This document shows, in pieces, positions 39,078 through 64,000 of a stretch of 64,000 bases of DNA. Source of the stretch: Chiloscyllium plagiosum (taxonomy: Eukaryota). Under the pieces are notes generated by a model. The model saw only the letters and a list, made by a program, of their open reading frames with translations, did not search any database and was not told the DNA's origin. The number at the start of each line of letters is the position of its first letter. Positions within the stretch are counted from its first letter, which is position 1. The translations under genes and the position numbers were made by a program. Location of the stretch: positions 2,890,148 through 2,954,147 of the forward strand of contig NC_057733.1 of assembly GCF_004010195.1 (NCBI RefSeq). Direction: 5' to 3'.

Positions 39078-39209
39078 TTACAGTTCACTGATGGGCTTGT
39101 GCGGCCAGAAGGGATACTTTTCCTTGTCCAGTTTAGTTTCAGGGAAAGCATCATTCAGATCCTCAATGGTCATCTGGTCAAATGGAATCATGCTTTTGAA
39201 TTTCGTCAA
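39078..39209 (-). CDS. ATP5PD: ATP synthase peripheral stalk subunit d, last coding exon (LTKFKSMIPFDQMTIEDLNDAFPETKLDKEKYPFWPHKPISEL*)
   Basis: Acceptor gttttccag, TAA at 39080-39078. Near-identical to the known subunit d C-terminus. The five coding exons sum to 486 nt = 161 aa + stop. Confidence 0.97.
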   Translation of the reverse strand: MTKFKSMIPFDQMTIEDLNDAFPETKLDKEKYPFWPHKPISEL

Positions 39210-39579
39210 CTGGAAAACAGCAAGTGAAAAGAACAAATGAGAGAAACGCACATGATCCAGCAAACTGATAACCAAAACGTTTATTCTCCGGCAAGTTACA
39301 CACATTTTGTCCCTCATTCCTCACTCCCCCAGATAAACTTCTTCAGAGAGACCACCAAATAACCCACTCGGTAGCCTCAGTGCTCCTTAACATTGGAGTT
39401 GCACTGTGACTACTTTCTATTTTGTCCAAAGGCATACAATGGTAAAAACAGGATCTGAAACGAGGATTGACTTTGCTGCTGACACTTAGTCTATAATCCA
39501 ATCAAACCTGGTTATGTTCACCAGGAGCTGGGGGAGGGAAAAGAGAGTGGGGTAGTAGTACCCAACAGAATGAAAAGGG

Positions 39580-40310
39580 CCGAAGTTTGACTGCAGACAT
39601 GTCACGTTTTGGTACAACAAACAGGGGTGGGACTTATACAAGTAATGGGCCTTGGGGTCGTGTTGTATAACAGAGGAATCTCCAGGTTCAGGTACATAAG
39701 TTTGAAGTTTACGTCACATTTAAATAGGGTGGCTTGCCTTCATTGCCCAGTCTTTTCAGCATAGGAGGTGGAAATCATATTGAGGTTGTACAGGACATTG
39801 ATGAGGCCTCCTCTGGAGTACTGTGTCCAGTTCTGGTCACCCAGTTATAGAAAGGATATTAAGAGGTATCAGAAGAGATTTACCAGGATATTTCTGCATA
39901 TGGAAGTTGAGTTATAAAGAAAGCTGGGTTTTTTTTCACTGAACGCAGGAGGTTGAGGGGTGACTTTATAGAGGTTTATACAATCATGAGGGGTATAGAT
40001 AAGGTTAATGGAAGGTTTCCTTTCCCTAGGATGAGGGGTTTCAAGACTAGGGGACACATTTTTAAGGTGAGAGGAGAGAGATTTAAAAGACATGAAGGGC
40101 AAACTTTTTGCAGAGGTGGTTGCGTGTGGAATGAACTTCCTGAAGAACTACTGGATGTGGGCACAATTACAATGTTTAAAAGAAATCTAGATAAGTACAT
40201 GAATAGGAAAGGTCTGGAGGGATATGACCAGGAGCAGGTACATGGATGAGTTTGATTATGTTCGGCATGGACTGGTTGGACCAAAGGTCTATTCAGTGCT
40301 GTGTGACTAT
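39580..40310 (+). mobile_element. CR1 3' fragment in an ATP5PD intron
   Basis: RGDFIEVYTIMRGIDKV...KTRGHIFKVRGERFK. Confidence 0.85.
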
Positions 40311-42175
40311 GTCTCAGAAGTAGAATTTTTCCTAAATAATCCAGTTCCACATAAGGTAGAATCAGATAGGAGTTCACACCATCCAGGGACCCCGGTGGAA
40401 AAATGATTTAGAACAATTAAGTGGGGACATGGATCAGTAATTGCAGTAAAGTGCCCAAACCTCAGTAGCCCATGGGCATTCATGTAATGATGGCCAGAGC
40501 CACAACTCATCACAGCACAACCTATGTGTGAGGGGCCTTATGAAAATTAAGTTAAGCACCGATGGTCGATGCCAATCTCATCTAAAATATAATTATGCAG
40601 AGGGTTAAAAAAATAAGTAGCCGAACAGAAAAAGTCTGATGACCAGAAATGACATAATTATAGTACTTTTAACAACATGTAGTAAAATGCAAATGATTCT
40701 CAGTCACATCACATGGTGAAATAATCAATTTCATGTGCAGTTTCTTGGTTTACCTTCTATTACCATCAATCCTGTGAACCAATATCTCTGTATCAAATCA
40801 CCAAAATGACAACAGCATGAAGTCCACATTAACAACAGAAACATGACCTTGCAAGATTATGCAAGTCAAGGATTGCTTTGCAAACTATTTCCAATGTGAC
40901 CCGGATAACTCTCCCTGCTTCTTAAGGGCAATTAGAGTTGGGTAACAATGTCTGAACTTGCTAGTGACACCCACCCATACATTAAAAAAAACTTTTGAAA
41001 TGAACCTGACCCCAGATATGAGAAAAACAAAACCCTCTTAAAGCAGCAAAACATTTACATTATCAAAGTTGGCTTATATAGATGTAAGTCTTGAGTTTTT
41101 CAAGTACGAACAGCTTGAAGAGGTATATTCTGTCCTGGTATTTTTTATGGCGAGGTTGAAACAGATATATTGAGTGGTCTGCTCAAAGTCAATAAAGTAA
41201 ACCGCTCAGGAGGCCTTAGTTTTTTTTTAAAAAACGGATTGGAAAAATAGAAGTAGCCTGAATGGGTAGGGTCAAGCTCCCAGAGAACCAGGATGTAAGT
41301 TTTAGCTTTCAGTAGCTGTTGGGTTGTGAAAGCTGCTACATCTCTCTTCTTTTGCTACAGCTAAAAGTTTGGGTTTTCTTCCTGCTGCCTGAATTGCATG
41401 AAACATAATCAATGTTACTGAATTTGCCTTTGCCACAGTTGTGCTTTTGGGATGTTATTGTGTTGGAACAGTTAATTAGTAGTTTATTATTTTAAATATT
41501 TCTATAGAGTTACAGTGACTTTTATTTTGTCTGTATTTTAACTGTAGTGTATGAATTAAGCTTGTTTTGCTTCAAGACTGATGGCTTGACCACTCAAATT
41601 GCATCCAGAATGCAAAGTCTGGCACTTGCCTTTAAGATAAGAAAATAAAATTAAAGGCTAGACTATCTCCTTGACACGTTTTGAAGGGGTTTGGACTGGT
41701 CCATAACATTTGCAAAATGTACTTTTATATGCTCATGTAGATTTCAGGCAAACACTCCATATTGTCCAGTGACTGACTAATGATGTTCCTCTCTCCTCAG
41801 AGGCACTATAACCAATGGTATGGGTAGGTGGTGGCCATTGGACACCTGGACAGCAAAGTCGAGAGTAGACCAAGCCAGGGGTGGTGCACAGCAGCAGCTG
41901 CTGCGGAGAACAGAATGTATCAGAGACCATGGCTAGCTGGAATTTGTTGCCTTCTTCCCACAACTGGGGTCTGAGCAGGAGTCCAAAGCCCAGGGGTGGC
42001 TTTTAGATAGGTCTCTTCATCAATAATAGGATGTCAGATAATAGTAGCAGATTTTAGAGAATGTGGCTGAGTGACTGCTGTGTCGGACCGAGCTGGGAAA
42101 AAAATTTGAAGGGATTCTGTGATTCAAAAGTTAAATTCTGTCAAATAGTGGTTATTTCTTCTCCCAGTGCAGTAC

Positions 42176-42238
42176 CTCTTTCTCGTATTTGGAAATCCGA
42201 TCCTTAGAAGCCTGAATGTAGGACTTAGCACTCTTGTC
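42176..42238 (-). CDS. ATP5PD: ATP synthase subunit d, coding exon 4 (DKSAKSYIQASKDRISKYEKE)
   Basis: Acceptor ttattcaacag, donor GAG|GTACTG, 63 nt, phase 0. Confidence 0.93.
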
Positions 42239-42349
42239 CTGTTGAATAAAAAGAAACCATTAACTGAATATAGACCCGGAATCTGATGAGTTGATTTGTC
42301 TGTACAACATGATCAGCTTGTGTGCATACACGAAGGGCCTGCTACTCAC

Positions 42350-42421
42350 AGCTTCTTGCTCCTGGGCATTGATCTTCTCCACTTGGGTGTCAATGGGTTC
42401 TGGAATCGTCACAGCATTATA
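42350..42421 (-). CDS. ATP5PD: ATP synthase subunit d, coding exon 3 (YNAVTIPEPIDTQVEKINAQEQEA)
   Basis: Acceptor ctgaaatag, donor GCT|GTGAGT, 72 nt, phase 0. Confidence 0.93.
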
Positions 42422-43149
42422 CTATTTCAGAGCATAAGAATAGAGGGATAAGAGAGAGAAATTAAAATATCAATCTAAATACTTTCTGCAACTCTCTTGA
42501 CAGTTTTATTTCACCCCTAAACAGATTACCTGAATTACAAGAGGTGATGATGTTGTGGTAATAGTACTGGATTAGAAACCCACCAATGGAATTTGCATTA
42601 AATTAATAACTTTTGTCCAGTGGTGACCATCAATAGCTGTTGCAATATGCATCTGGTTCACCAACATCCTCCAGGGAAGGAAATCTATCATCCATATCTG
42701 GTCTGGCCTAAGGTGACTGCAGGCTAACAATTATGACATAACCACCATCTGAAGTGGTCTAGCTCATCACCAGTTCAAAGACTAAAGGACTGAAGTTGGA
42801 TAGGTGAAGTAGCATCAACTTAGGTGTCAGAAATTAAAACAGCAAACTCAGCCCTAATGACCCTGCAAAATCCTCCATATCAATATCTGGAGACTACTGC
42901 AAAATTGGAGAAGATATGCCACAGACTAGTCAAGCAACAGCTTGAATCATAGAATCATGGCTTAAAGATTCCAAACACCTTTCCATTATCTACCAGTAGG
43001 ACAGACTCAGTGGTAGTGGCACAGTCGTATAGCCAGGAGGGGGTGGCCTTGAGAGTTGTCAACATTGACTCTGGAGCCCATAAAGCCTCATGATATAAAG
43101 TAAAATATGGGCAACAAAATTTCCTGTTGATTATCACTGACTGCCCCCT

Positions 43150-43620
43150 AAGGCCAGTACAGTTTTGGTCACCTTGTTATAGGAAGGATGTTATTAAACT
43201 GGATAGAGTGCAGAAGAATTTTACAAGGATGATGCCTGGACTCAGTGGTCCAGGGAGTAATAGGGAGAGGTTGGACAAGCTAAGACATTTTTTTCTTAGA
43301 GGGTAGGAGACTGAGGGATGACCTTATAGAGGTTTATACGATCATGACAGACATGGATAGGGTGAATACGCTCAGTCTTTTTCCCTTGGGAAAAATTGAG
43401 GACTAGAGGGCATCAGTTTAAGGTTAGAGGCGAAAGAATAAAAAGGAACCTGAGGGGGCAATTATTTTGCACAGAAGGTGGTATGCACATGGTATGCTCG
43501 ACCAGCAGGAGTGGCTGAGGCAGGTACATTATCAACATTTAAAAGGAATTTGGATAAATACATAGATAGAAAACGATTAGAAGGACAGGGACCAAGCGCA
43601 GGGAAGTGGGATAAGCGAGG
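43150..43620 (+). mobile_element. CR1 3' fragment in an ATP5PD intron
   Basis: Typical CR1 ORF2 C-terminal and 3' sequence. Confidence 0.8.
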
Positions 43621-43716
43621 TCATGTTGAAAGAAGATACACAAATGCCATCTTTTGGGTTTTCCTGCCTGTTGAAAGTCCCTCCACACCAAAACAGGTGT
43701 GGCGCTGTTCCATCAC

Positions 43717-43813
43717 CTTCTTTTCAAACTCGTCCACCATACCAGCCTTCATAACCACTTTCCGGTAATAGACCCAGTCAATCGATGGAGGTTTCTCAGA
43801 AAGCGACGTCAAC
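43717..43813 (-). CDS. ATP5PD: ATP synthase subunit d, coding exon 2 (LTSLSEKPPSIDWVYYRKVVMKAGMVDEFEKK)
   Basis: Acceptor cccacag, donor AAG|GTGATG, 97 nt. Contains the PPxIDWxYY motif. Confidence 0.96.
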
Positions 43814-44439
43814 CTGTGGGGAAGCGGAAACAGTCAGCAGGCTATGACCTACAATTAAATACAGATTTTAAAAAGGCATGTTCACCAGGAGAAGGTCTAT
43901 TATTTTGAGAGAATTTTGTACTCAACAGTATGGATCATCAACCTAAAATCTGACCTTTGTTTAGAACAAAGAAAATTTACAGCCCAGGAACAGACCCTTC
44001 GGCCCTCCAAGTCTGAGCCGATCCAAATGTACTGTCTAAAACTGTCGGTCAATTCCTAAGCATTTGTATCCCTCTGCTCCCCACCTACTCATGCATGTGT
44101 CCAGATGGATCTAAAATGAATCCACCGTGCCTGCCTCTACCACGTCTGCTGGCAACGCGTTCCAAACGCCCACCACCCTCTGTGTGAAGTACTTGCTGCG
44201 TGTAAACCCCTTAAACATGCCACTTCTCACTTTGAAAGCATGACCTCTCGTTATTGACCTCTCGTTTCTCTTCCTCTGACTCTAGGGGCTGAAATGCCTA
44301 CCCCTATTTCTTCTTTTCTTATGGACACAGTCTCAATCACCTGCCCTGCAAGCAATGCCAAGAGAGCCTTAATGTGCATCTACACCCTTCTTGTCCCAAT
44401 CCTGGCAGTGTTACATGGAGACAGCATCATGAGAGCTTT

Positions 44440-44830
44440 ACTTGCAACTTTGAAAGAGTAAAGGGAGGCACCTGTACAGTGTCTAACCCCATACAGTCCC
44501 TGTACTGGGAGTATTTGATGCAGACAGTTCAGATGAAACTTTAATTGTGGTTTCACAGGATAGAGGCAAATTTACCCTGTACCTAACATTGGAGTGTCCC
44601 TTTTTTGGAAGTGTTTGATCGGGACAGTTTGGAGGGAGCTTTACCCTGTATGTAACCCCATGTCTTGAGTGTATTTGATGAGGACAATTTCAAGGAAGTT
44701 TTACTTTCAGTTTAAAAGAGTAGAGCTAGTTTTACTCCGTATCTAGCCCTGTGACATAACTGTCCTGAGTGTTCATGGAGACAGTGTAGAGGTGGCTTTA
44801 TGGAGTATCTAATCCTGTGCTGTCAGGAAC
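44440..44830. repeat. Degenerate ~65-70 bp tandem repeat (TTTACTCTGTATCTAACCCC...GTGTTTGATGGGGACAGTGTAGAGGGAGC)
   Basis: Recurring diverged units: gtatttgatg...gacag...ctttac...taaccc. Confidence 0.6.
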
Positions 44831-45283
44831 AGTTGACAGGAGAGATAAGAGGGAGCTCGCTTCTGCCTTTCTAGCAAAATTATAAATCAAAATAGTTATG
44901 TGGGAATTCAGAAGAAATTTCTTTACGGAGTGAGCAGTAAAAACATGGCACTCATCACAATAGAGATCAACTGAGGCGCATGCTATACATATATTTAAGG
45001 GAAGCTAGATCTGAGGGAGAAGAGGAAAAAAGAGAAAAAAAAAGAGTCATGCTGATAGAGCTGGGTGAGGAAGGTTAGGAAGAGGCTCAGGAGGAGCAAT
45101 AACAGCAGCATGAACTGGCTCAGGTGAATTGCTCGTTGCTTGAAGTAGGAAATGTTTCATCTTCAACACCGCTTACATTCAGAGTGAGAAATTATGAAGC
45201 GTCTTTGTTGGCAAATCAGATTTACAACAGATGACATTTTTGTTCCAAAAAATGCTTGTGAACAGAGGTAAGGAGACACTGAC

Positions 45284-45405
45284 CTGCTAGACAGAGCATC
45301 GCTTCGAGTTTTCAGTGCATTAAACATAGCTCTCTGGTTAGGTGGAACACGTTCACCAAATGCCAACCAATCAACAGCTTTCATGGCAACTCGCCGACCA
45401 GACAT
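45284..45405 (-). CDS. ATP5PD: ATP synthase subunit d, coding exon 1 (MSGRRVAMKAVDWLAFGERVPPNQRAMFNALKTRSDALSS-R)
   Basis: ATG at 45405, preceded by acceptor ttctag (exon edge at 45414). Donor AG|GTCAGT. 122 coding nt. Confidence 0.96.
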
Positions 45406-47200: not shown

Positions 47201-47269
47201 CGGAATTACGTCACTGCGACCCCTGGGTAGGCGGAGGTTTGACCCGACACTTCCGGAAATGGCGGCTTG
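47180..47269. promoter_or_regulatory. Bidirectional CpG promoter shared by ATP5PD and KCTD2
   Basis: YY1-like AAAATGGCG (47183-47191) and AAATGGCGGC (~47257-47266). CRE-like TTACGTCA (47206-47213). Overlapping inverted ETS/GABP cores in ACTTCCGGAAAT (47249-47260). Confidence 0.8.
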
Positions 47270-47470
47270 ATGGCGGAGCTGCAGAACGCGGGGCCTCCGG
47301 GCGGTAATGGCGCCAGCGCTCCCGGCTCCGGGGACAAAGCCGCCAACAAATGGGTTCGTCTGAACGTGGGAGGGACGTACTTCGTCAGCACCAAGCAAAC
47401 CCTGTGCAGGGATCCCAAATCCTTCCTGTGCCGCCTGTGCCAGGAGGACCCAGACCTGGACTCGGACAAG
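47270..47470 (+). CDS. KCTD2: BTB/POZ domain protein KCTD2, exon 1
   Basis: MAELQ...[40 protein letters not shown], donor AAG|GTAATG. The six exons total 654 nt = 217 aa + stop. The MAELQ start, the SRM* end and adjacency to ATP5PD favour KCTD2 over KCTD5/17. Confidence 0.95.
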
Positions 47471-48064
47471 GTAATGGCGGTCTCCATGGTGACCCCCCCC
47501 CAACCCCACTGCATTGTCTCCATGGTGATCGGTGGGCAAGCCCCTCTGGACTGGGGTCAGTTTACATGAGAGCCCCATCCACACACTGTGTGTACTCAGG
47601 ACCAGGTGCCACCCTGACTTGTTTGTGTGGCTCTGTGTTTTACTAGATCCAGCACCGTCCTCCCCACTCCTGGTCATCTTGCCAGCAGCAACACATTCTC
47701 TCACCAACTATCTCTGCCCGTGTTTGAACATGGGAACATTTCCTTAGCAGCAATTTCCTCAGGATAACCTGATGGGAGTAAGCACTGACTGGCAGGAAGG
47801 GTGACTACATTCTTGATCATTATCAGATCTTAGTGAAAGATCACCAACAAAAGCCAAAGGGTTCGCAGTCCTCATCCTCATCAACTGTCCCCAATCCCAC
47901 TCAGGTTTTCACCAAACACTGTCATAATTGAAGTTATGCTGTTTGTATGGAAGAAATACGAAATCAAAACATTCTCAGTACATTCAAAGTCTGATTTTGC
48001 ATTGTGTATGATCAATTTGTATTACACTTTATTTTATGTTTTGCTTTTTCTCTATATTTTACAG

Positions 48065-48173
48065 GATGAAACCGGTGCCTACCTAATTGACAGAGACCCA
48101 AGTTACTTTGGGCCGATCCTCAACTACCTGCGACATGGCAAACTGATCATTAACAAGGATTTAGCAGAGGAGG
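48065..48173 (+). CDS. KCTD2: KCTD2 exon 2 ([37 protein letters not shown])
   Basis: Acceptor ttttacag, donor G|GTGAGA, 109 nt. Confidence 0.97.
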
Positions 48174-48257
48174 GTGAGAATTGAAACCTGCTGAAATATA
48201 ACTTAGCATACTGATTGACATTAACATATTGCCAAGGATATTCACTGGACATCATAC

Positions 48258-49120
48258 TTTTTTTTTCCTCAAACTTATACATTATTTATTAAACAAATGT
48301 ATAAATATGCTCAATAACATTTCAAGTTGGACACTTGAGAAAGTACAATACAATTAAAAATCTTCTATACAGCATGTGACAGTCTGAATTGCCTCAGTCC
48401 AAGTTCAATTACACTTGAAGTTTATAATAAATATTCCTTGACAAAGATGCAATGCACGGATTTTACACAATTTTCAATCCTTTAGTTTACTATGGAAGGT
48501 GGACTTTAGACAGTTCTTTTCTCCATTAACTCTTTATGCACTTGTGTCAAGCTTCAGTACATTCCTCAGTTTACAATCTTGGACCTTGTAATGTGCCAGT
48601 CTGCAACATTTAGTTGTGAATGATCTTCTAATGGATAGAGCCAATGTGTTTCAGAAAATTAATAAGTGTAATTCACAAAGTTGATGTCCTCCAGCAGAAT
48701 TTAATGTTTGGCTCTGTGTGCATCCCTGGAACAGCCCATAGCGTGCAGAGTCCTCAGCCACAGTGTTTCTCAAATTGGACCTTGACGATTGCATCTCTCT
48801 CCCGACACCTTCTCTGCAAAGGAACATCCAAAGGAAATGAACGACTGTCTCTTCCTCACCATTGCCTCTCTGGGTAGAGAGAGTGAAACTCCAGGCGTGT
48901 AGGGAAGGATCTGGCAGGGACAGCATTTCTCACCAGATGCCAAGTTATATTTTGGCATTTGTTTAAAACTTTATGCAATGCTCCTCAGGGAACGATATGA
49001 CAGGACCAGTCATCTCCTTTTCAGGCAGAGCATTACAGACATTCTTTGCAGACCACGATATCATAGCTTTGTGGTCAAATATGTTTTACTGCATACAACT
49101 TTCAAGAAGGGACAGCTACA
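48258..49120 (-). mobile_element. L1/Tx1-like LINE 3' fragment with poly(A) tail
   Basis: Poly-T at 48258-48266 next to tttatt. Minus-strand zf-RVT-like EETVVHFLW...YGLF remnants. Confidence 0.6.
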
Positions 49121-49349
49121 TGTTTGAACTGCGAGGTGACAAGTCGCCAGGTGCTGATGGATTTCATCCAAAGGTCTTAAATCTCATTAGATTCAGAGAA
49201 GGTTTCATTAGATTATAAAATGGCTAATTTATCTCCTTTATTCAAAAAGGGAGGGAGGCAGTAGACAGGAAATTATGGGCAAGTTAGCTTAATGTTTGAC
49301 ATAGGCAAAATGTCAGAAGCTATTACTAAAGATGTTATAATAGGGCACT

Positions 49350-49755
49350 TAGAGCCATTGAGATATACAGCACGGAAACGTACACTTCAGTCCAACTTGT
49401 CCATGTTCACCAGATATCCTAAACTGATCTAGCCCTATTTGCGAGCACTTGGCTCATATCCCTCTAAATCTTTCCTATTTATAAACTCATCCAGATACCT
49501 TTTAAATGTTGTAATCACCCTTCTCCTCCACTTCCTCTGGCAGCTCATTCCAACATGAACCACTCTCTGTGTGAAAAAGTTGCCCCTTAGGTCCTTTTTA
49601 AATCTTTCCCATTTCACCCTAAACCTATGCCCTCTAATTTTGGGCTCCCCCAGCCCAGGGAAATTACCTTGTCCATTTACCCTATCCATGCCCCTCATGA
49701 CCTTATAAACCTCTATAAGGTCACCCCTCAGCCTCCGACGCTCCAGGGAAAACAG
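49350..49755 (-). mobile_element. CR1 3' fragment
   Basis: MRGMDRVN...KIRGHRFRVKWERFKKDLRGNFFTQRVV. Confidence 0.85.
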
Positions 49756-51021
49756 CGCGTTGATTTTGAGGAATGATTAATATGTGTCCAGTTCTCAAAG
49801 AGATTGGATTGCATCATGAGAGATCACCAGTCTAGGATTTTATTTACTGATTAGACCAAGACTGTGTTGCACAAGTATAATAGAAAAAGCAAGTGTTCTG
49901 AAAATGGTATTCTAAACACAACATCTGTTGCCATTTGTCTTACATATTTATCTAAAATATGTACATGATTTGAACAATTGTGTAAAATTCTTTATCCTAA
50001 CGCACAAGGCAAATGATCTAGATTGAGGTATCATTATTGCTTGCTCATTGAAAGCGGTGGTTTCACTGTTGAAGTTTGGAGCTTGATTTGGGTTTCTGGT
50101 TTCCTCATGTTGGTAGGGCTGATGGTACTTTGCGTAAATTGCTGCAGAGGATGATGTGGAATAGCTAAAGTGTTAATGATATGAGCTGTGATGTACAGGT
50201 AGATGTCAAGAAGCTGCAGCAAATGAAGAGCTAAACGTTGCAGCTGAGTGCAGAGGCGCATTTCAATATGCGAATGACTCACACTTTGCTTTGTTTTTCA
50301 GAGGATATATGATTTTCCTGCACATTCCCGACTCCACATCTTTTTCTCTCTTCGCGAGTAACGAATACTTAGAGGACAAAACACACTTTCCACTGTGGTT
50401 TTGTATCCATTTTAAATTCTGTTCCATCCTTTGTGCATTTTTGTTTGATGGTGTGGATTTTAGAAACTGAGTAAAACCATATCAGGTTAGAGAGTTTCTG
50501 AAGAAAGTCAAAGGCATGCTGACGAGTCTTAAACATTGTGAGGCCTTCAAATGTCAGTTATGGTCAGTACCTGCACTGACTGAGATTATTGTGACGATCC
50601 TGCCTTCTAGCCCCTTGCTAGTGACTATCAGTTTAAACTTCACCATCAGCCATTCTCAAATGAGAGAGCAGCCCTATGGTCCTCTGAGAGTATGGTGACT
50701 TTACTTATGTTTAGTGCAGTGATTCATTATAGAGGTGGGTTGACCATTACATTGATTAGCATTAAGTGTTAAGACATACCCTGCACTATTGTCTATTTGT
50801 TCACTCAATTAGACTGCCAAAACTGGGTTTAAACAGCTTGGATCGAAAGGTATAAAAGATGATCTGTACCTACTCTCCTCCCATAGGTCAATTTTTTCCC
50901 AAGCATAATACTTGAATTAAAAAGCTGAGTCACAGTTGAGTGAGTAAACTGGTCAGCTATTCTGCTCATAAGACAGTGAAAGGTGAAGGCCACACTTTGA
51001 CATAGCAGATAGGTTTCATTC

Positions 51022-51595
51022 AGGCACTGTGGCTCATTGGTTAGCGCTACTGCCTCACAGCGCCAGGGACCCGGGTTCAATTCTAGCGTCAGATGACTGT
51101 CTGTGTGCTGATTGCACATTCTCTCCATGTCTGTGCGGGTTTCCTTCAGGTGCCATGGTTTCCTCCCACAATCCAAAGCTGTGCGTGTTGGGTGAATCAG
51201 CCATGGTAAATTTCCCATAGTTGAAAATGTGTTGCTGGAAAAGCGCAGCAGGTCAGGCAGCATCCAGGGAACAGGAGAATCGACATTTTGGGCATAAGCC
51301 CTTCTTCCTGAAGAAGGGCTTATGCCCGAAATGTCGATTCTCCTGTTCCCTGGATGCTGCCTGATCTGCTGCGCTTTTCCAGCAACACATTTTCAGCTCT
51401 GATCTCCAGCATCTGCAGACCTCACTTTCTCCTCAAAAATTTCCCATAGTGTCCAGGGATGTACAGGTTGGGTGGATTAGCAATTGGAAATGCAGGGTTA
51501 CAGGGAAAGGGAAGTGGGTTGGTCAGGTGGGATGTTCTTCGGAGGGTTGGTGTGTACTTGATGGGCTAAATGGCTTGTTTCCATACTGTAGGGAT
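51022..51595 (+). mobile_element. HE1-like tRNA SINE with a nested palindromic Penelope-end insertion (51222-51436)
   Basis: A/B-box head GGCACTGTGGCTCATTGGTTAGC...GGTTCAATTC. 14-bp TSD AAATTTCCCATAGT at 51208-51221 and 51437-51450. Confidence 0.88.
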
Positions 51596-51984
51596 TTTAT
51601 CAAAAACAAATTACAATTTATTATATATTTCCTCCCTTCCCTGAACAAAACATGATCCTGGTTAAAACTGTACCAATGGATGCTGCCCAATAATCTTATG
51701 TTAAGTGTACATTTTGAATAGCCCAAAGCCATACAAAGCAGAGACCCAGGTTTCATTTGGATGCTGTATCAGTTCATCTCCAATTAGGTGGTGTTCCTAC
51801 ATTTGCCCTGTGTTATAGTGAAAAACATTACAGGTACTGAGTGAAATTGGACAAGGTGTAAGTTTGGCTGTAGGAAACTGGATGGGTTAGATATTGAGTA
51901 TTTTGTTTGGACATGCCCTTTGTACTTGTATGGTACTATGTTGCCATTCACTTGTTAAATTGTCTGAATGTTCATGGTGCAATA

Positions 51985-52290
51985 GATTCTATTACCTACA
52001 GTGTGGAAACAGGCCCTTCGGCCCAACAAGTCCACACCGACCTTCTGAATGGAAACCCACACCCCTATATTTACCCCTGACTAATCCACCTAACACTACG
52101 GGCAATTTAGCATGGCCAATTCACCTAACCTGCACATCTTTGGACTGTGGGAGGAAACCAGAGCACCCAAATGAAACCCACACAGACACGGGGAGAATGT
52201 GCAAACTCCACACAGACAGTTGCCTGTGGTGGGAATTGAACCCAGGTCCCTGGTGCTGTGAGGCAGCAGTGCTAACCGCTGAGCCACCAA
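51985..52290 (-). mobile_element. HE1-like tRNA SINE
   Basis: Reverse complement of the SINE head and body. Confidence 0.85.
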
Positions 52291-52413
52291 GCTCATGAAA
52301 ACTGCCTTGTTGGTCAAATTTTAAGCTTGAGGCAATGTTTGAGCTTCTGACACTACTGCTGATGGAGTCAAGCCCTGGCTGAGTGCTTTCTAATCTGTAC
52401 TTTATTTTTCCAG

Positions 52414-52505
52414 GGGTCCTGGAGGAGGCAGAGTTTTATAACATTGCGTTACTCGTTCGGCTGGTCAAAGAACGCATTAGGGACCTGGAGAATAGGACTT
52501 CACAG
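52414..52505 (+). CDS. KCTD2: KCTD2 exon 3 ([30 protein letters not shown])
   Basis: Acceptor tttttccag, donor CAG|GTGAGA, 92 nt. Confidence 0.97.
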
Positions 52506-52909
52506 GTGAGAACCTACCCTTGGATTAACCATTTGGTAATTTATTTTACTGGAAACGAGATCGCTCCAACTCAGGTTTCTGACATCTCTCTGAAACCAGT
52601 CTATGTTTATGTACAAAAGCAGAGTGCGAACATGGGGATCATCAAAGTGTGTTGCACACATTACAGGACCCTGGACAGTGAAGTGAAGTTGGGAATGGAA
52701 ATTTCAAAAGTAATTTATCTAATTTTTTTTTAATTGGCAGTGTCCTTAGGTGTTTGGCACAAAATGTATAGTCGGCGTGTTTGGTGATCTTTCAGAGACT
52801 GTTTAGGTTGCACCAATGAAAAAACAAACTCTCCAATGTATAATCCCTGACCAGATTCACCAGAAGCTGGCACTTCTAACCAGTAGGCCAAAGGAGACAT
52901 AAGCTTGCC

Positions 52910-53640
52910 AACACGTGGCAAATGCAGTTTAATTTTGATAAATGCGAGATGTTGAATTTTGATAAGCCAAAATCAATGGTAGAGTCCTGGGTTGTGTTGT
53001 CAAATGGAGAGATCTAGAGGTTCAGATAAATAGTTCCTTGAAAGTGGCACACCTGACTTCATTGGTCAGAACATTGAGTAAAGGAGTTGGGACATCTTGT
53101 TGAGGCCACTTTTGGAGTATTACATACAATTCTGTTCGCCCTGCCATAGGAAGGATTTTATTAAACTGGAAAGAGTGCAGAAAAGATCTAAAAGGTTGTT
53201 AACGAGACTGGAAGGTTTGGGTTATAACGAGAGGCTGGCTAGGCTGGGACTTTTTTCCCTGGAGTATACGAGGCTGATGATCTTACAGAGGTTTATAAAA
53301 TCATGAAAGGCATACATAAGGTCTTTTCTCTCGAGTAGGAGAGTCTAAAACTAGAGGGCATAGGTTGAAGGTGAGGGGGAAAAGATTTAAAAGGGACCTG
53401 GGAATCAGTGTTTCCAGAGAGCGGTACGTATATGGAATGAACTGCCAGAGGAAGTGTTAGAGGTGGGTACAATTACAACATTTAAAAGACATTTGTGCAG
53501 GTACGTGAATAGGAAAGGTTTAGAGTGATTTGGGCCAACCGCGGGCAAATGGGACTAATTTAGTTTATGAAACTAGATCGACATGGATGAGTTGGACGAA
53601 AGGGTCTGTTTCCATGTTAGGTGACTCTATGACTCTGTAA
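52910..53640 (+). mobile_element. CR1 3' fragment
   Basis: RPLLEYYIQFCSP...KLERVQKR; GACTCTAT tail. Confidence 0.8.
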
Positions 53641-54700
53641 CCAGAAAGATAGATCCACCATCTCTCAGTTGGAGTGGAAAAATTTCCCACATTTCCAGAT
53701 ATCCAAGTCACCAAGTCCCAGAGGACCACAGGATTATTCTCTCATGAGAGAGATGACCCGTGGTGAATTTAACCTGAGGGTCATCATGCCTCAGGACAGT
53801 TTGAAAAGGCGAGGCCTTCATGAATACCTCAGCTGATGTAGAAACAGTATTAGCTAGAAATGGACACAGCTGAATGCTATATGTGCGGTGAGAAGATACA
53901 TTTGATCAAGGGTCCTTGAAGTTCAGTTCAATGGATCAGAGAGAAGCTAACCATTGATTTGGAACAAAGAAAGATGGTTATGATTATTGGAGGTCAATCA
54001 CTTTAGAAATTCTGATGCTTCACTTCTTACCTGAGCAGATTTAGAACATAGAACATAGAACATAGAAGAATACAGCGCAGTATGGAACAAAGAAAGATGG
54101 TTATGATTATTGGAGGTCAATCACTTTAGAAATTCTGATGCTTCACTTCTTACCTGAGCAGATTTATCTCCCTTCCCTCTATCCCCTGTTCTCTCATGGC
54201 TGTTTCTGAATGATGCTGCAGTGTTCAGTTTCATTTGGAATTCGCCAGATAACCAAGCAGACCATGCCTGCATGCAGCAAGACTTGGGAATCATTCTGAC
54301 TTGGTGTGATTGGTAGGAGCAACAGCCATAATGCTTTTGAATTTATACAGCACCATTAATGTCTGAAAACTCCTCAAGATGCTTCACAGAAATGTTATCA
54401 AATAAAGTTTGTCATGGAGCAATGGATAACTGAAGATTTGGTCACATGGACTGCAGTGGTTCAAGAAAGCATCTCACCATCACTACCTCAAGAGGCAGCT
54501 AGGGATGGACAATAAATGCTGGTCCAGCCAGCAATACCTTAAATGAAATTTTTTTAAAAAAAAGGAAAACTTTAAGGTTTGCCTTAGCAGAAGAAAAGAA
54601 AAGGAAGAAAAGGGTTTGTTTCTTTTTTGCCTTTGACTGCTTTATGAATGAATAAAGATCGCTATGCTAGTATTTCTAATTATCGCTGTTTGCTCCATAG

Positions 54701-54805
<105 letters not shown>

Positions 54806-55579
54806 TAATTATCAGTTATTATTAAATGGGATCTACGGTTTTGACAAGGTTGAAACCATCAATGGGCACTGCACTGCAACTGTACTTGCAAGTATACTTT
54901 GAACACTGAGGGGAGCTGTTATTGAGGTGTAAGGATTTTAAAAGCAACAGTTTGACCTAAACAGTAAAAAGTGGAAAATGACACAACCCGAAGTAGGGCT
55001 AACAATAATCCAGTTTAATCTCAAAAGATAAACAGAATGGAGTGGCAGAAAGGGGAGGGAATATATGCAACAGAATGCTAGGTATGTGATGCAAGGTGGA
55101 CAGTAAGCAAATTTCAGTGGAAGTGAAGTCAATTTTTTTGGTCAGGAGTGCAGTTGAGGGTTGTGTTAGGCAGAATGTTGCTGAGTTTGTTTGAAATATC
55201 AGGGAGGACTGCTTCTGTGGTGCTTTATCCTTCTACATTTCAACGATGGCTAGGGTAGGAATTTTTATGTCATCCTGTAGACCTTTTGAAACAATGTTTG
55301 TATAAACATTTGAATGATGTTTTGCACTCAGTTTACCAGTATGTGGAGAGGATGACTGTGTTGCAATGCAGATCTACTATATAATATTAACTTGCAGGTG
55401 TGTTTCTGAGGAATTCTTCCAAGCTATTTTTAGCAAAGAGGATCTGTTTAGTAAAAGCTCCATTGCCCAACCTGGTTCTCATGGAGGATTTGGGGCTGGG
55501 GGGGGTCAGTGGTGGTGGTACAGCATAACACATTTATATTTCTTAATCATTGGGTTGTGTGACATGTTTTTTTTGGTTG

Positions 55580-55897
55580 ATTAGATTAGATTCCCTTCAG
55601 TATGGAACCAGGCCTTTTTCGGCCCAACTAGTCCACACCGACCCTCCGAAAAGTAACCCACCCAGACCAATTCCCCTACATTTGCCCCTGACTAATGTAC
55701 CTAACACGATGGGTAATTTAGCATGGTCAATTCATCAATTCACCTGCAATTCTTTGGATTGTGGGAGGAAACCGGAGCACTCGGAGAAAACCCACACAAA
55801 CGTGCAAACTCTGCACAGACATTCGCCCAAGGCTGGAATCAAACCCAGATCACTGGCACTGTGAGGCAGCAGTGCTATCCACTGAGCCATGGTGCCA
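55580..55897 (-). mobile_element. HE1-like tRNA SINE
   Basis: Same family as 51985-52290. Confidence 0.85.
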
Positions 55898-56187
55898 CCC
55901 CACATTTATAACAATATTTAGCAGAATTTCTAAGCAATTCTAAAGACTTAAATTGGTCATTTGAGTAATGAGTAAGAGGCTTTTAGAAGTGCCAGGAAGC
56001 AGATCTAACTAATTAAACTATTTTCCTGCTATTTAAGTTAAAAAGAGCGATCTAGACAGAGACAAGCTCGGCTCCAATTCCTGATCACATTCCATGCTGT
56101 ACATCTCTATGACTCTAAGTGGGTGGGGCTCAGGACTGCACTAAGTTGAGTATAACTCGCACTGATATTGTGTTTACCCCTGGTTTC

Positions 56188-56525
56188 TTAGAATCCCTGC
56201 AGTGTGGAAACAGACCTTTCGGCCCAACAGTTTACACTAACTCTTCGAAGAGCATAGAATAGCACACCTATCCTATCCGTGTAACTCTGCATTTCCCATA
56301 GCTAATGCACCTAACCTACACAGCCCTAAACACTATCGATAATTTAGCATGACCAATCCACCTAACTTGCACTTCTTTGGACTGTGGGAGGAAACCGGAG
56401 CACTCGGCAGAAACCCGTGCAGATACGGGGAGAACGTGCAAACTGCACACACAGTCACCTGAGGGTGGAATCGAACCTGAGTCCCTGGTGCTGTGAGGCA
56501 ATAGGGCTAACCACTGAGCCACCAT
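56188..56525 (-). mobile_element. HE1-like tRNA SINE
   Basis: Same family as 51985-52290. Confidence 0.85.
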
Positions 56526-56799
56526 TCTGATCTGGTCTGAATAGAATTCATAGGCATGTGAAGTCACATGAACATACAAGTTAGCAGCAGGAGAAGGCCT
56601 TTTGGCACCTCAAGCATCAGGTCAGAAGCAGGTTGCCTTTCAATGTGGGATTCCTCTCCCAGTTAATTTGTTGGGCAGGTTTTTTTTGGGAGAGTGAGGA
56701 GCTTGATTGGTTGGTGTTCAACTCACTCAGTACCAAGGTTCATAAAAATCTCCCAGTCCCATCTGCACATTCTTGCCCTGTCCTCCTCTTTCCTGTGCC

Positions 56800-57400
56800 C
56801 CCTTTTGCATGTGCAGTGCTCACACGCTCTCCCTGTCTTACATGAATGTACCTTCTCATGCACATGTATGCACACACATTCCCTCATAGGCATGTGTATG
56901 TGTGCTCCTTCCATTATATGATCACCCATATGAGTGCTGTCACTCATGCATGCATCAATGTACACATTCTCCCTTTCATGCACATCTGCAAACTACCCAC
57001 CCAACCCCCATTGGCATTCAATTTTTCCTGTGCATGTAGGACTATTGCTGGCAACATTCCCAGTGTGCACCCCATGTAGGCTCATTTGATGAACTTTGTA
57101 TGTGTGTACAGATTACACATGGTTAGGATGGGGAGACTGCATGTTTAGATCTTTCCCTCATGTGCACACTGTACCAAGCTTTCACTCATATTCACCCATT
57201 CTCTCAGGTGCACACACATACTCTCACCCTGTATTGCATGTGTGCACAGCCTTCTGCAGGGATGAGACATGCACAAACCTTCCCTTTGTGTGCCCACATT
57301 GACATGCATACATGCATGTGCACACACAGGCCCTTCCTCACAGTGCAGGTATACAAGCATGCATAGGTACTTCCTATGCATGTGCATATGGGCGCAGGTC
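56800..57400. repeat. Degenerate CA/TG (CATGCACA-like) low-complexity tract
   Basis: Dense catg/caca/tgtg words give spurious His/Cys/Met-rich ORFs on both strands. Confidence 0.7.
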
Positions 57401-57789
57401 TGAACCGGCCATCTGCAGTGGCCAAAGAAGCCACTCAGTTCAAGGGCAATTAGGGATATGCAACTAGTGCTAGCTTGGCTGATATATCCATGACAGAGTA
57501 AAGAATAGAAGAGATATTCCCTGTCTGGTCTGAGAGTTAAGATTAACGTTTCATAGTTCCTGCTGAATCTCCAAGCCAGTGGCGGCCCAATCAGCACTCT
57601 GCTCATGCTGTATAAATTCGTGTTCCTCTTTTCAAGTCTGAGTCTTGTGTTCTATTCCTATGAATGCAAAACAAAACATTTTGATTTTTCTCCTTTTAGC
57701 AGTGTTTAACTTATGTACTACTAAGAATTGTTTTTAAAGACGAACCCTACAAAGACAACTTATCTTGGTTCTTTAACTTTTGAGGCAGC

Positions 57790-58535
57790 TACATAGTCAT
57801 AGAGATATACAGTACGGAAACAGACCCTTTGGTTCAACTCATCCATGCCAACCAGATATCCCTATATAAATCTAGTCCCATTTGCCAGCATTTGGCCCAT
57901 ATCCCTCTAAACCTTTCCTGTTCATATACCCAGGAGCCTTTTAAATGTTGTAATTATACCAGCCTCCACCACTCCGCTGGCAGCTCATTCCATACCCACA
58001 CCACACTCTGCACGAAAAGGTTGCCCCTTGGTCCCTTTCATATCTTTCCCCTCTCACCTTAAACCTGTGTCCTCTGGTTTTGGAATCCCCCACTCCAGGG
58101 AAAAGACCTTGCCTGCTTACACTATCCATGCCCTTCATGATTTTATGAACCTCTATAAAGTCCCTCCATTTCCGACGCTCCAGGGAAAATAGCCCGAACT
58201 ATTCAACCTCTCCCTGTAACTCCAACCCTGCCAACATCATCTCAGATGAACTCCGATGTTCAGAGGTATTTGAAATCAAACAGCAGAGGCAGTAGCTGTG
58301 AAGGCTCACTGCTGGGTCACACAACAGTGCAGGTGTCTTTCTTGTTTGATTCACTGACCATGTGACCCTTGTCTCCTTTTGATCTTTTTTCCCCCCAAAG
58401 TTCCAAAACAATGCAACAGCTTATAAAACAGTGATTACTGCTCCTGGAATTTGGGGAAATCCTACACTGAAAATACCTCAAAAAAAGGAGCAGCTCTTAC
58501 AGCCATAATTATTTCCTGTCCTCCATCTTAGATTA
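57790..58535 (-). mobile_element. Internally deleted CR1: 5' UTR segment joined to the 3' end
   Basis: 58535-58245 matches the CR1 5' UTR at 22770-23090; 58240-57790 is the ORF2 C-terminus and tail, in the same orientation. Confidence 0.7.
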
Positions 58536-58669
58536 GCGAGAGATCTCTCCAAATGTTTGCAGTATCTCATTAATGGAGAAAATGTCTGTGCAGCAGGAGG
58601 CATGTGTAATTATACTTGGTGCACTAATAAATGTATTACACGTAATTTAAATTCCATGTTCTTTCACAG

Positions 58670-58795
58670 CTCATTAGCATTGGATCCTCCTATAACTATG
58701 GCAATGAAGATCAGGCTGAATTCCTTTGTGTTGTCTCCAGGGAGCTAAATAACTCGACTAATGGAATTGTCATAGAGCCCAGTGAAAAAGCCAAG
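58670..58795 (+). CDS. KCTD2: KCTD2 exon 5 ([42 protein letters not shown])
   Basis: Acceptor ctttcacag, donor AAG|GTACTG, 126 nt. Confidence 0.97.
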
Positions 58796-59091
58796 GTACT
58801 GCTCTGCCATCCATTCACCTCTAGTTCTCTCTCACACTCTCGCTGCCACAAGACATGCCGACCTCATGCTGGCAAGTTACGACAGTTTGAGATATTCTTT
58901 GCATTTTGTTGTTACTGGTTAGAATGTGGAACGTGCTAAAGTGGAGAAGGTCGGACAGCTGGACAGAAGGGATGGGGGATACTTGACATGGTGGGGTTGA
59001 GATCTACCAACTTGGGTTTGCTTGACCAAATTTTCCCACCCCTTTAAAACCTCTAATGAACTTATCTCCCGATATTATTTTCTGGAAACAG

Positions 59092-60335: not shown

Positions 60336-61182
60336 CTGTGTCTTTCTACAGTTCTGTCTGCAAGATGCACTGCGGCAACTTGTCAAGCTTCCTTCAATAG
60401 GCACGTTCCAAACAAGTCTTCTACCAGCTCAGAAGGACAAGAGCAGCAGGTGCATGGGAGCTCCTCAAAGCCATGCACCATCCTAACTTGGAACTATATT
60501 GCTGTTCATTCACTGTCTATAGGTCAAACACCCATTCCTAATGGCACTGCGGCAATTCAAGAAATCTGTTTCTCACACCACCTTCAGAGCAATAAACGCT
60601 GGCCTTCCAGCATGTCACTGACTGCAATCAGGGCTTTTGGGAAGTTCTACATTTTGAAGTTGTTCTGATGTGTTTTTAAAGGGAGTATTAAATGCATATT
60701 ATTTGAAGTCTTGAAAACACCAAGGTAAGATCCCTCCCTGCTTTGTGTATAAGATAAGACATGGTTCAAACAATGTAGCAAAATGGCACTCATTCAAGTC
60801 AGATAGTGATCAAGAAAAAACATTTTTGTTCTTTCTTCCTATTATTTCTGAATTTGCTGGGCAGTTTCCTGCCTCTGCTAGTCAGAGCACTATGCATAAA
60901 TCAAAAATTGGACTCAGTTGTCTCTATGGTAACATTTTTCTCTGCCCTTTAACTTTGATGCATGGTGCTAAGCCCAGCTACAACACCCATCTTTCCTAGT
61001 ACCACTTATTGCTAATTAAGTGCTGAAACCAGCACTTTTGGTATATGTCTCAGCTATTGACAGTGATCCTGCTATCCTATGGGCTTGCAATTCCTCTCTA
61101 TTGTGTTTGAATAAGTCAAGAAACCCTTTGAGTTTTAAATTAAAAATTGTCAACAAAAATGACATGATATCTACAATTTACT

Positions 61183-61188
61183 TTTATT
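61183..61188 (-). terminator. Polyadenylation signal AATAAA for the microprotein gene
   Basis: tttatt on the plus strand, ~200 nt downstream of the stop codon. Confidence 0.55.
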
Positions 61189-61391
61189 ACAAACATATAT
61201 ACATCCTTAAAATTGTTGTGTAACTTTAACCTTCATTCATTCTTTTAAAGAGCATTTCAGAAGCATTGTGTATCGTACAAACATTCATCCTGGTTTTGTT
61301 CAGTCTGAGTGTCATGCTTGAGCACCATGCCTGGTTGCAGAGCACTACAATTGGCTACTCAAGTGGGGAAGTTCATTCCTGTTTCCCAAGT

Positions 61392-61524
61392 TCATCGTGG
61401 TCTTTTCTTCTCGTCCAATTCCTGCAGTTGTTTTTCTCTCCGTTCCAGGATCACCTGCAGCTTTTCATTATATTTGTCACGTTCCTTAGCACGAATCTCT
61501 TCAATATCTGGGAAGAAACTGTGC
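61392..61524 (-). CDS. Unrecognised 75-aa microprotein, exon 2 (HSFFPDIEEIRAKERDKYNEKLQVILERREKQLQELDEKKRPR*)
   Basis: Acceptor gttgaacag, phase-compatible with exon 1. Charged helical sequence ending in TGA at 61394-61392. AATAAA at 61188-61183. Confidence 0.75.
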
Positions 61525-62874
61525 CTGTTCAACACACACAACAATGCCAGGTAGTGCAAGTCATGACGAGCTACTTCACAACTTTATGCCTGACACATTC
61601 CTCATTGCCCTCAGGACATTAAAACTAAATCACAGCTGGCATATGCCTCAAACTACATGTGGGCTCAGACCATGCAGGGGCCACAGCTTTCACCCTGACA
61701 TGTTTAAAAAATACCTAACTGCCTTAAGTACAACACAGCACTTTGCAAGAGTCCAGAAGTTACTAAATTTAATTAAATGTGTCAGAGGTCACTGGTGCGA
61801 TTTGAACTGATTACCGCTGAATATTAGTGTTGGTCGTCATTACCTCAGCAAGTCACTTTCAACAAAATTATGATTTGGAGATGCTGGTGTTGGACTGGGG
61901 TGTACAAAGTTAAAAATCACACCACACCAGGTTATAGTCCAACAGATTTAATTGGAAGCACTAGCTTTCGGAGCGACGCTCCTTCTGGGGGGAGGGGGCA
62001 CCACCAGTCTCTGGGCAAGGAAGGTGGGGTGGGGAATATCACCACGGGGAGAGGAGGGGAACACCTCAGTTGCTCGGGAGGAGGATAGGAAAGGGCGGGA
62101 AGGAGTGAGCACTCCAGTCCCCGTGGGTGNNNNNNNNNNNNNNNNNNNNNNNNNNNNNNNNNNNNNNNNNNNNNNNNNNNNNNNNNNNNNNNNNNNNNNN
62201 NNNNNNNNNNNNNNNNNNNNNNNNNNNNNNNNNNNNNNNNNNNNNNNNNNNNNNNNNNNNNNNNNNNNNNNNNNNNNNNNNNNNNNNNNNNNNNNNNNNN
62301 NNNNNNNNNNNNNNNNNNNNNNNNNNNNNNNNNNNNNNNNNNNNNNNNNNNNNNNNNNNNNNNNNNNNNNNNNNNNNNNNNNNNNNNNNNNNNNNNNNNN
62401 NNNNNNNNNNNNNNNNNNNNNNNNNNNNNNNNNNNNNNNNNNNNNNNNNNNNNNNNNNNNNNNNNNNNNNNNNNNNNNNNNNNNNNNNNNNNNNNNNNNN
62501 NNNNNNNNNNNNNNNNNNNNNNNNNNNNNNNNNNNNNNNNNNNNNNNNNNNNNNNNNNNNNNNNNNNNNNNNNNNNNNNNNNNNNNNNNNNNNNNNNNNN
62601 NNNNNNNNNNNNNNNNNNNNNNNNNNNNNNNNNNNNNNNNNNNNNNNNNNNNNNNNNNNNNNNNNNNNNNNNNNNNNNNNNNNNNNNNNNNNNNNNNNNN
62701 NNNNNNNNNNNNNNNNNNNNNNNNNNNNNNNNNNNNNNNNNNNNNNNNGGGACACCCCGGGTCTCCGGGGGGGTTGGCCAAGAAGGGGTCACTCCTATTT
62801 CTCTAAAGTGGTGGTGGGGAGGGAGAACACCCCAGCCCCGGGTTGGGGTGGACACCCCCCGGCCGCTGCCTGAC

Positions 62875-62969
62875 CTGTACAGAAAGGCGGACACCATCCC
62901 GACACCGACCGCCGCAAACAGCAGCGGCTTCCCCCATCGCTTCCGCACCGACAACTGGCTCTGCCTCAT
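62875..62969 (-). CDS. Unrecognised 75-aa single-TM microprotein, exon 1 (MRQSQLSVRKRWGKPLLFAAVGVGMVSAFLY-R)
   Basis: GCC-ATG in a CpG island, donor AG|GTCAGG, 95 nt, phase 2. Basic N-terminus followed by a ~17-aa hydrophobic segment. Confidence 0.75.
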
Positions 62970-62974
62970 GGCCA

Positions 62975-63035
62975 CGCCGTACTTCCGGTGAGGCCGGAAA
63001 CAGCTCCGTCCACGGCAGCGCGCGTGCGCAGGCCC
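62975..63035 (-). promoter_or_regulatory. Promoter of the microprotein gene with ETS/GABP and NRF1 motifs
   Basis: CCGGAAGT on the minus strand at 62988-62981 and a second CCGGAA core at ~62994-62999. TGCGCACGCGCG on the minus strand at 63030-63019 fits the NRF1 consensus YGCGCAYGCGCR. Confidence 0.7.
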
Positions 63036-63239
63036 CGGGGTCACCAGGGAGAGGGGTCACCAGGGAGAGGGGTCAAGTGTCAGAGCATCAGCTCAGTGAA
63101 CTTTTCAAAACTCTGAAGGACAAAATCCTGCTCTTCGAGGATAAAATTCTGTTTAATTGGAACTGTTCAGCGGGCTGACACGTGGTGGAATCACAGGATA
63201 TTAAATTGGGAATTATCAACATGTGAGTGTAGTAACCAT

Positions 63240-64000
63240 CACTAAGGAGAAGGCGCTGGGAAGCTGGAAGGTCCGAAGGTGGATAAATAATCTGGACTAC
63301 ATCCTAGAGTTCAAACAGAAATAGTTGAGATTGCAGAGGCATTTGGTAATGACCCTTCAGAAAAAACTGGGAGTGCCCCAGATGACTTGGAAATGGCTGA
63401 TGTAACACCCTGTTTAAGGAGGGCAGAAGGGAGGCAGAATACAGAAAATCATCAACCGTTTATCCTGATCTTGGTTGTTCGTAAGATTTTAGAGCCCATT
63501 ATTAAAGATGAGATTGGTGGAGAAGTTAGAATTGCATGTTAAAATAGAGCTGAGTCAGCATAGCTTTGTCATGGGGAGGTTATGTCTGACAAATTTGTTA
63601 GACCTCCTTCGGGGGTAATGAGCAAGTTAGACAAAGGAGAGCCAATGGATGTCATCTGCTTGGATTTCAGGAATGCCTTTGACAAGGTACTGCACAGGAA
63701 ACTGCTAAACAAGATAAGAGCCCTTATTGGGGACAAGGTACTGGCATAAATGGAGATTTGACTGACTGGCAGAGGGCAGAGAGTAGGGGAAAAAAAGGAG
63801 TCTTTTACAGGATGGCAGCCTGTGATAAGTGGAGTTCTGCAGGGGTTAGTGTTGGGACCACAATGATTCACATTCTACATTAACAACCTGGGTGAAGGAA
63901 CTGAGGGCATTGTTGCTACATTTGCAGATGACACAAAGATAGGTTGAGGGACAGGCAGTGTTGAGGAAGTGGGAAGGTTGCGGAAAGACTTGGAGAGGCT
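63240..64000 (+). mobile_element. CR1 ORF2 RT fragment (runs off the window)
   Basis: DVICLDFRNAFDKV...QGLVLGP...FADDTK. Confidence 0.85.

Follow-up and report, generated by a model that had tools for sequence, protein, structure and literature searches.

We find, on the minus strand of a 64-kb window (the whole 64,000-nucleotide stretch analysed here, positions 2890148-2954147 of contig C24 in the genome searched), a two-exon gene encoding a predicted single-pass membrane microprotein of 75 residues. That the gene is real is virtually certain. It is ordinary in kind, and its product appears to belong to a new, unnamed and apparently unstudied vertebrate microprotein family. The protein is probably mitochondrial, a location suggested by its basic N-terminus, its short and moderately hydrophobic helix, its charged helical tail, its language-model (Atlas) neighbours and the NRF1 and ETS sites upstream of the gene.

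With respect to gene structure, a sequence-only reading of the window had proposed a hidden gene with this exon arrangement, and all of the coordinates that it claimed hold on the minus strand when checked in the window sequence (Table 1), the exons of 95 and 133 nt giving 75 codons plus the stop. Exon 2 and a teleost orthologue, each searched against the genome, find one place only, which is this locus, and the gene is single-copy in this genome. The intron contains an N gap of 619 nt (62130-62748); it also contains a high-copy repeat at about 61870-61985, where thousands of reads and contigs pile up.

Table 1. Features of the microprotein locus and its neighbours; positions are those of the window unless a locus beyond it is named.
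Feature	Position	Strand	Remark
Coding part of exon 1	62875..62969	-	95 nt; basic N-terminus and membrane helix
GCC-ATG start	62969	-	
Predicted single transmembrane helix, codons 15-31	62877..62927	-	17 residues, mean Kyte-Doolittle 1.91
GT-AG intron, 1,350 nt, phase 2, splitting Arg32	61525..62874	-	GT donor at 62874, AG acceptor ending at 61525
Coding part of exon 2, 133 nt with stop	61392..61524	-	conserved RH-x-FF-x-D turn, charged helical tail
TGA stop	ending 61392	-	
3' UTR, end approximate	61171..61391	-	from read depth and contig end
AATAAA polyadenylation signal	61183..61188	-	12 nt before the end of the X11 contig (61171)
ETS/GABP-type site, 12 nt before ATG	62981..62988	-	one of two matches in the window
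NRF1 consensus site	63019..63030	-	sole strict match in the 64-kb window
CpG-rich promoter and first exon	62749..63150	.	low end runs into the N gap
ATP5PD (ATP synthase subunit d) exons	39099..45399	-	PF05873 on three exons
KCTD2-like BTB gene	47243..58936 (ORF bounds, approximate)	+	BTB_2 on two exons; later exons by motif
MRPL58/ICT1-like RF-1-domain exons	L002:5093-9337, beyond window	-	GGQ motif, RF-1 Pfam match
CDR2L-like exon	L004, beyond window	-	no informative Pfam match

Four of the 24 listed runs (X20, X6, X2 and X11) were aligned to positions 60800-63300. In X20, which is raw poly(A) single-cell RNA with the same species label and of which about 2% was read, two reads with two different starts join the exons across the 1,350 nt, with GT-AG ends and a shorter arm of 51 letters; the same joint is carried, at depth 197, by a contig of X6, a run from a related organism. 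RNA reads thus span the exon junction that had been predicted. No exon joint was seen in X2 or X11 over this interval, and the X2 contig continues into the intron. Outside the intronic repeat, X20 depth is up to 135 over exon 2 and the 3' UTR and up to 7 over exon 1; it reaches the bin 62984-63067, is 0 in the next bin (63068-63151) and drops away below about 61136-61219. First mates of this run lie almost wholly on the plus strand, which fits minus-strand RNA. The transcript is spliced and expressed, with a polyadenylation signal at its end. Read-through from MRPL58 is an unlikely source of this RNA, given a CpG promoter at the gene itself and zero X20 depth in the bin 63068-63151. It had also been cautioned that the N gap could hide another exon; since the joint skips the entire gap and the product is ungapped against its homologues, this concern is removed for the main isoform, and a minor isoform with an extra exon may exist.

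Seven of the 40 substitutions listed (of 102) fall in the coding exons: four are synonymous, two give A19V and E62D, and one, at the end of the frame, brings the stop forward by a codon. Among the 12 indels listed (of 17) none lies in the coding exons and nine lie in the 3' UTR. Within the 3' UTR, a C/T difference at 61206 (61 of 152 X20 reads) is probably an allele. A fish contig, L028, has a first coding exon of 95 nt, and the intron after it interrupts this arginine codon likewise in phase 2. Nucleotide identity with this contig is 44, 55 and 29 of 73 codons at the first, second and third codon positions, a different codon encodes 23 of the 35 conserved residues, dN is 0.37, and dS is saturated and could not be computed. 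The saturated synonymous sites and the shared intron phase bear out the earlier proposal of a coding gene by conservation at codon level and, judged from these comparisons, the product is under protein-coding constraint. The lack of a RefSeq-style accession among the family members listed would suit a non-coding transcript with an incidental ORF, a reading that is hardly credible in view of protein-level conservation, the state of the synonymous sites, the common intron phase and the distribution of indels between coding exons and 3' UTR. The supplement of a fish mitochondrial proteome (PMC9330239), which may not list peptides, held no match.

The protein belongs to a set of vertebrate homologues. 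A HMMER search with exon 2 gave nine matches, one of the matched clusters consisting of 76-aa hypothetical proteins of two sturgeons, and a profile search of 1,223 candidates recovered 105 proteins, each with E ≤ 1.7e-9 and with no further match up to E = 10. Word-based homologue searches returned no candidate with exon 2 and, with the sturgeon protein alone, its own cluster only. Thirty-nine of the 40 species-named matches are teleosts and the remaining one is the turtle Caretta caretta, whose cluster holds two more turtles; medaka and cyprinid orthologues were found, and examples of the orthologues are KAK1163899.1 (Acipenser oxyrinchus), TKS89478.1 (Collichthys lucidus) and CAM2101920.1 (Caretta caretta). 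A Logan gene call, P0112, has a turtle-like exon 2 and is possibly from another tetrapod. One further locus, L029, was rejected: it matches by chance within an ORF of 349 aa on a contig of bacterial type.

In an alignment of 60 full-length members, from which exon-2-only gene calls and most long extensions were left out, 11 columns are invariant, and the window protein keeps ten of them, the exception being position 19, where it has Ala in place of the Gly of its orthologues. On the 60-member profile it scores 100 bits, and it aligns without gaps to all 60 members at 40-59% identity, and the coding part of exon 1 is 61% identical to the sturgeon protein. Given this gapless similarity, and the same intron in the one locus seen, we take the fish and turtle hypothetical proteins to be orthologues. 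A tree of 24 rows (23 of the 60 members plus the window protein) sets the teleosts apart from the sturgeons, the turtle and the window protein, with the turtle and the window protein forming long branches. No mammal, bird or amphibian is among the named matches; this absence is weak evidence, as the search needs shared 5-residue words, many matches are unnamed and no RefSeq-style accessions are found among the members listed. The last point also indicates that annotation of the family seems patchy.

Names given to family members by automatic annotation include 'PET117 cytochrome c oxidase chaperone' (one UniRef entry), 'septum formation initiator' and 'ribosomal protein L5e'. They are unreliable, since unrelated names coexist and the PET117-named entry has no Pfam match. 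The description of the gene as possibly unannotated holds in part and is overstated: orthologues from at least 40 species are entered in GenBank as hypothetical proteins, which carry no reliable name, family or function. No description of the family was found in the literature searched, and smORF catalogues could list the gene.

We observe no Pfam match for either exon alone, for the 60 full-length members (best E 0.017) or in 12 further scans. Furthermore, each of the known microproteins considered as a candidate was rejected for lack of a match and has its own locus elsewhere in this genome: PIGBOS1 (PF23670) on C36, SMIM4/UQCC5 (PF15114) on C18, UQCC3 (PF15141) on C49, PET117 (PF15786) on C9, SMIM20/MITRAC7 (PF15061) on C1, PET100 (PF09803) on C8 and BRAWNIN/UQCC6 (PF14990) on C19. 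Genome searches for these seven genes did not match the present gene, which is therefore none of them, in agreement with the sequence-only reading, which could not match it to PET100, PIGBOS1 or UQCC5/6. The PET100 exon on C8 looks intact; an additional PET100 match on C6 (L031, C6:43977017-43977202) is broken and intronless, with two stops, like a processed pseudogene.

When the known mitochondrial proteins, partly as single exons, were compared with the family profile using 1,000 architecture-preserving shuffles, none showed significant homology. The best score is 5.6 bits for PET117 (reached by 97 of 1,000 shuffles), followed by 3.0 bits for SMIM20 (44 of 1,000), 0.7 bits for PIGBOS1 (159 of 1,000) and -1.9 bits for SMIM4, exon 1 only (865 of 1,000), and the matched exons of PET100, BRAWNIN/UQCC6 and UQCC3 score below 0 bits. 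For PIGBOS1, a pairwise score of 33 with only the tail aligned is reached by 112 of 2,000 segment shuffles.

The likeness to these proteins is one of architecture. SMIM4/UQCC5 (UPF0640; fly Sloth1) has a similar size, basic N-terminus, one helix and charged tail, but no sequence similarity. PET100, BRAWNIN/UQCC6 and UQCC3 are alike as members of the broad class of small single-pass respiratory-chain assembly factors. The helix of SMIM20/MITRAC7 has a similar L-F-G ... A-A-F spacing, a resemblance that concerns the helix only and is not significant. PET117 likewise has about 80 aa and two coding exons, and in it too a His and a charged helical tail come after the N-terminal helix, but its helix starts at residue 7 after one basic residue, whereas here it starts at residue 15 after five. 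A published account places PET117 in the matrix and links it to COX15 (PMC11011759). The gene could in principle be a very distant paralogue of PET117 or SMIM20/MITRAC7 acting in complex IV assembly, a proposal that overlaps with our preferred explanation and adds common ancestry. The PET117-named UniRef entry, the place of PET117 among the Atlas neighbours (0.87) and the alignment of the helix with that of SMIM20 (17 columns, 41% identity, probability 14-16%) speak for it. Nevertheless, we judge this ancestry improbable, considering that the named entry lacks any Pfam match and other members carry unrelated names, that the PET117 profile probability is 0.4%, that intron positions relative to the helix differ between PET117 and the family, and that PET117 and SMIM20 have their own loci.

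The anatomy proposed from the window alone, namely a basic N-terminus, a hydrophobic helix of about 17 aa and a charged helical tail, is borne out by the features of the 60 members and by a model of the sturgeon orthologue. Ahead of the helix the members carry a median of five K/R, and 57 of 60 have no D/E there; an uncharged 17-residue stretch follows K-P in 55 of 60. Mean Kyte-Doolittle hydrophobicity over the 17 helix residues is 1.91 in the window protein and 1.3-2.1 across the family, similar to the 1.5-2.1 of PIGBOS1, SMIM4, SMIM20 and PET117 of this genome. Across the 60 members, the periodicity of conservation in the tail is strongest at 100 degrees per residue, which corresponds to one helix face. 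The sturgeon model has helices at 8-30, 32-35 and 37-71 (pLDDT 79), whose relative placement is not fixed at a pTM of 0.38, and a homodimer prediction scored 0.01, giving no evidence either way. PDB searches gave no specific match by sequence, and by fold they yielded generic long helices only (Z up to 5.6).

The protein has the size and layout of the class, with fewer than 100 aa, one short predicted membrane helix and a basic N-flank, and its Atlas neighbours are leads to this class rather than evidence of homology. The nearest clusters consist of small eukaryotic proteins. The top neighbour of the sturgeon protein is an oomycete cluster (0.92) with UPF0640 on 20% of its members, a family that only one of the ten best family matches shares; it is followed by green algal and mucoromycete clusters (0.89) with no family and then by PET117 (0.87), UQCC3, DUF4748, COX6C and MITRAC7 at 0.83-0.87, scores below 0.9 being leads only. 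Five of the six Pfam families shown are inner-membrane respiratory-chain proteins. With exon 2 the best score is 0.77, which is uninformative.

A basic N-flank with one helix also fits outer-membrane and ER proteins. The microprotein might be a single-pass protein of the ER or secretory pathway: a type II signal anchor, cytosolic at its basic end, could regulate or complete a different membrane complex. The positive-inside rule would produce this pattern of residues as well, and no homology ties the protein to mitochondria. The helix is, however, short and only moderately hydrophobic, and none of the Atlas families shown is ER or secretory, and we regard this placement as unlikely.

The promoter had been described as of mitochondrial type, and the predicted NRF1 and ETS sites are indeed present within CpG-rich windows spanning 62701-63150 (GC 0.62-0.66, O/E 0.65-0.81). 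When the 200 nt upstream were simulated 20,000 times with a first-order Markov model, a strict NRF1 site never occurred and an ETS site occurred in 0.9%, both sites thus being above chance. NRF-1 and GABP are given as the main regulators of nuclear mitochondrial genes, driving most nuclear OXPHOS genes (PMC7596099). As evidence for location the promoter is nevertheless weak. Among four known mitochondrial microprotein genes of this genome (300 nt each), an NRF1-like site was not found in the promoters of SMIM4 and PET117, and an ETS site was found in none. The one fish orthologue promoter examined (L028) also has no NRF1-like site and only a loose ETS-like match. The NRF1 motif therefore neither defines such genes nor is conserved with this one.

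Both flanking regions of the microprotein gene hold mitochondrial genes. Along the contig the order is ATP5PD (-), KCTD2-like (+), microprotein (-), MRPL58-like (-) and CDR2L-like (-), where the BTB gene, convergent with the microprotein gene, is presumably KCTD2 and the exon on L004 presumably belongs to CDR2L. The MRPL58-like gene lies directly upstream on the same strand; it was missed by an RF-1 family search of the genome and found by motif and Pfam, and its last exon, which was not found, may lie in an N gap (L002:2726-3225). A tRNA-Arg(TCG) gene (L002:2466-2539) lies between the MRPL58-like gene and the microprotein promoter, and a GC-rich tandem repeat of about 1.6 kb with frames open for more than 500 codons (L003:2675-4296) lies between the MRPL58-like and CDR2L-like genes. 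On the 3-kb fish contig L028 no neighbour gene was recognisable. The microprotein gene had been described as clustered with ATP5PD, which is overstated, because its immediate neighbours are the KCTD2-like and MRPL58-like genes and ATP5PD is about 16 kb away, beyond KCTD2. Relative to the human order, which we take to be CDR2L, MRPL58, ATP5PD, KCTD2, the ATP5PD/KCTD2 pair seems inverted with respect to MRPL58, with the microprotein gene at the junction, so that an inversion breakpoint would fall at this gene. ICT1/MRPL58, ATP5H and KCTD2 are placed near each other at 17q25.1 in a published report (PMC4031637).

The MRPL58-like and ATP5PD neighbours bear on a reading in which the protein is mitochondrial and has another role, either in the outer membrane like PIGBOS1 or in the inner membrane, where it would assist the mitoribosome or ATP synthase and not complexes III or IV. 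In line with this, PIGBOS1 is also a small single-pass protein of similar size with a basic N-flank and charged tail, and a weak 30-column alignment with it covers the N-terminus and helix (probability 3.8%). However, its score on the family profile is reached by 159 of 1,000 shuffles, and gene neighbourhood in vertebrates rarely implies shared function, and we consider such a role somewhat unlikely.

We see about an even chance that the microprotein lies in the inner mitochondrial membrane and serves a respiratory-chain complex, either as an assembly factor or as an accessory subunit; that this complex may be III or IV is a guess by analogy. As a mechanism, we propose that the basic, acid-free N-terminus would direct import without cleavage and stay on the matrix side, and that the 17-residue helix would span the membrane, its conserved K-P-x-L-F and G-L-A-x-A-F positions packing on a helix of the partner. 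The RH-x-FF-x-D turn would then sit at the membrane surface, and the 35-residue tail could project into the intermembrane space and bind the partner along its one conserved face, helix and tail face together stabilising an assembly intermediate. A comparable topology, in the inner membrane with N-in, C-out and the C-terminus in the intermembrane space, is described for SMIM4 and C12orf73 (PMC8719881, PMC9681215). Conserved microproteins, SMIM4 and C12orf73/BRAWNIN among them, have repeatedly proved necessary for respiratory-chain assembly (PMC8719881, PMC9681215).

The present family has been kept across the fish-tetrapod divide, with neither a Pfam family nor a reliable name. We tentatively raise the possibility, itself doubtful, that it is an ancestral jawed-vertebrate OXPHOS subunit or assembly factor, strongly constrained in fishes and turtles, that in mammals was lost at the inversion breakpoint beside MRPL58 or survives unrecognised. 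The family raises the question whether the gene was lost in mammals or is hidden there in a transcript annotated as non-coding. If the possibility is true, most vertebrates would assemble their respiratory chain with a component that is missing from the mammal-derived parts list.
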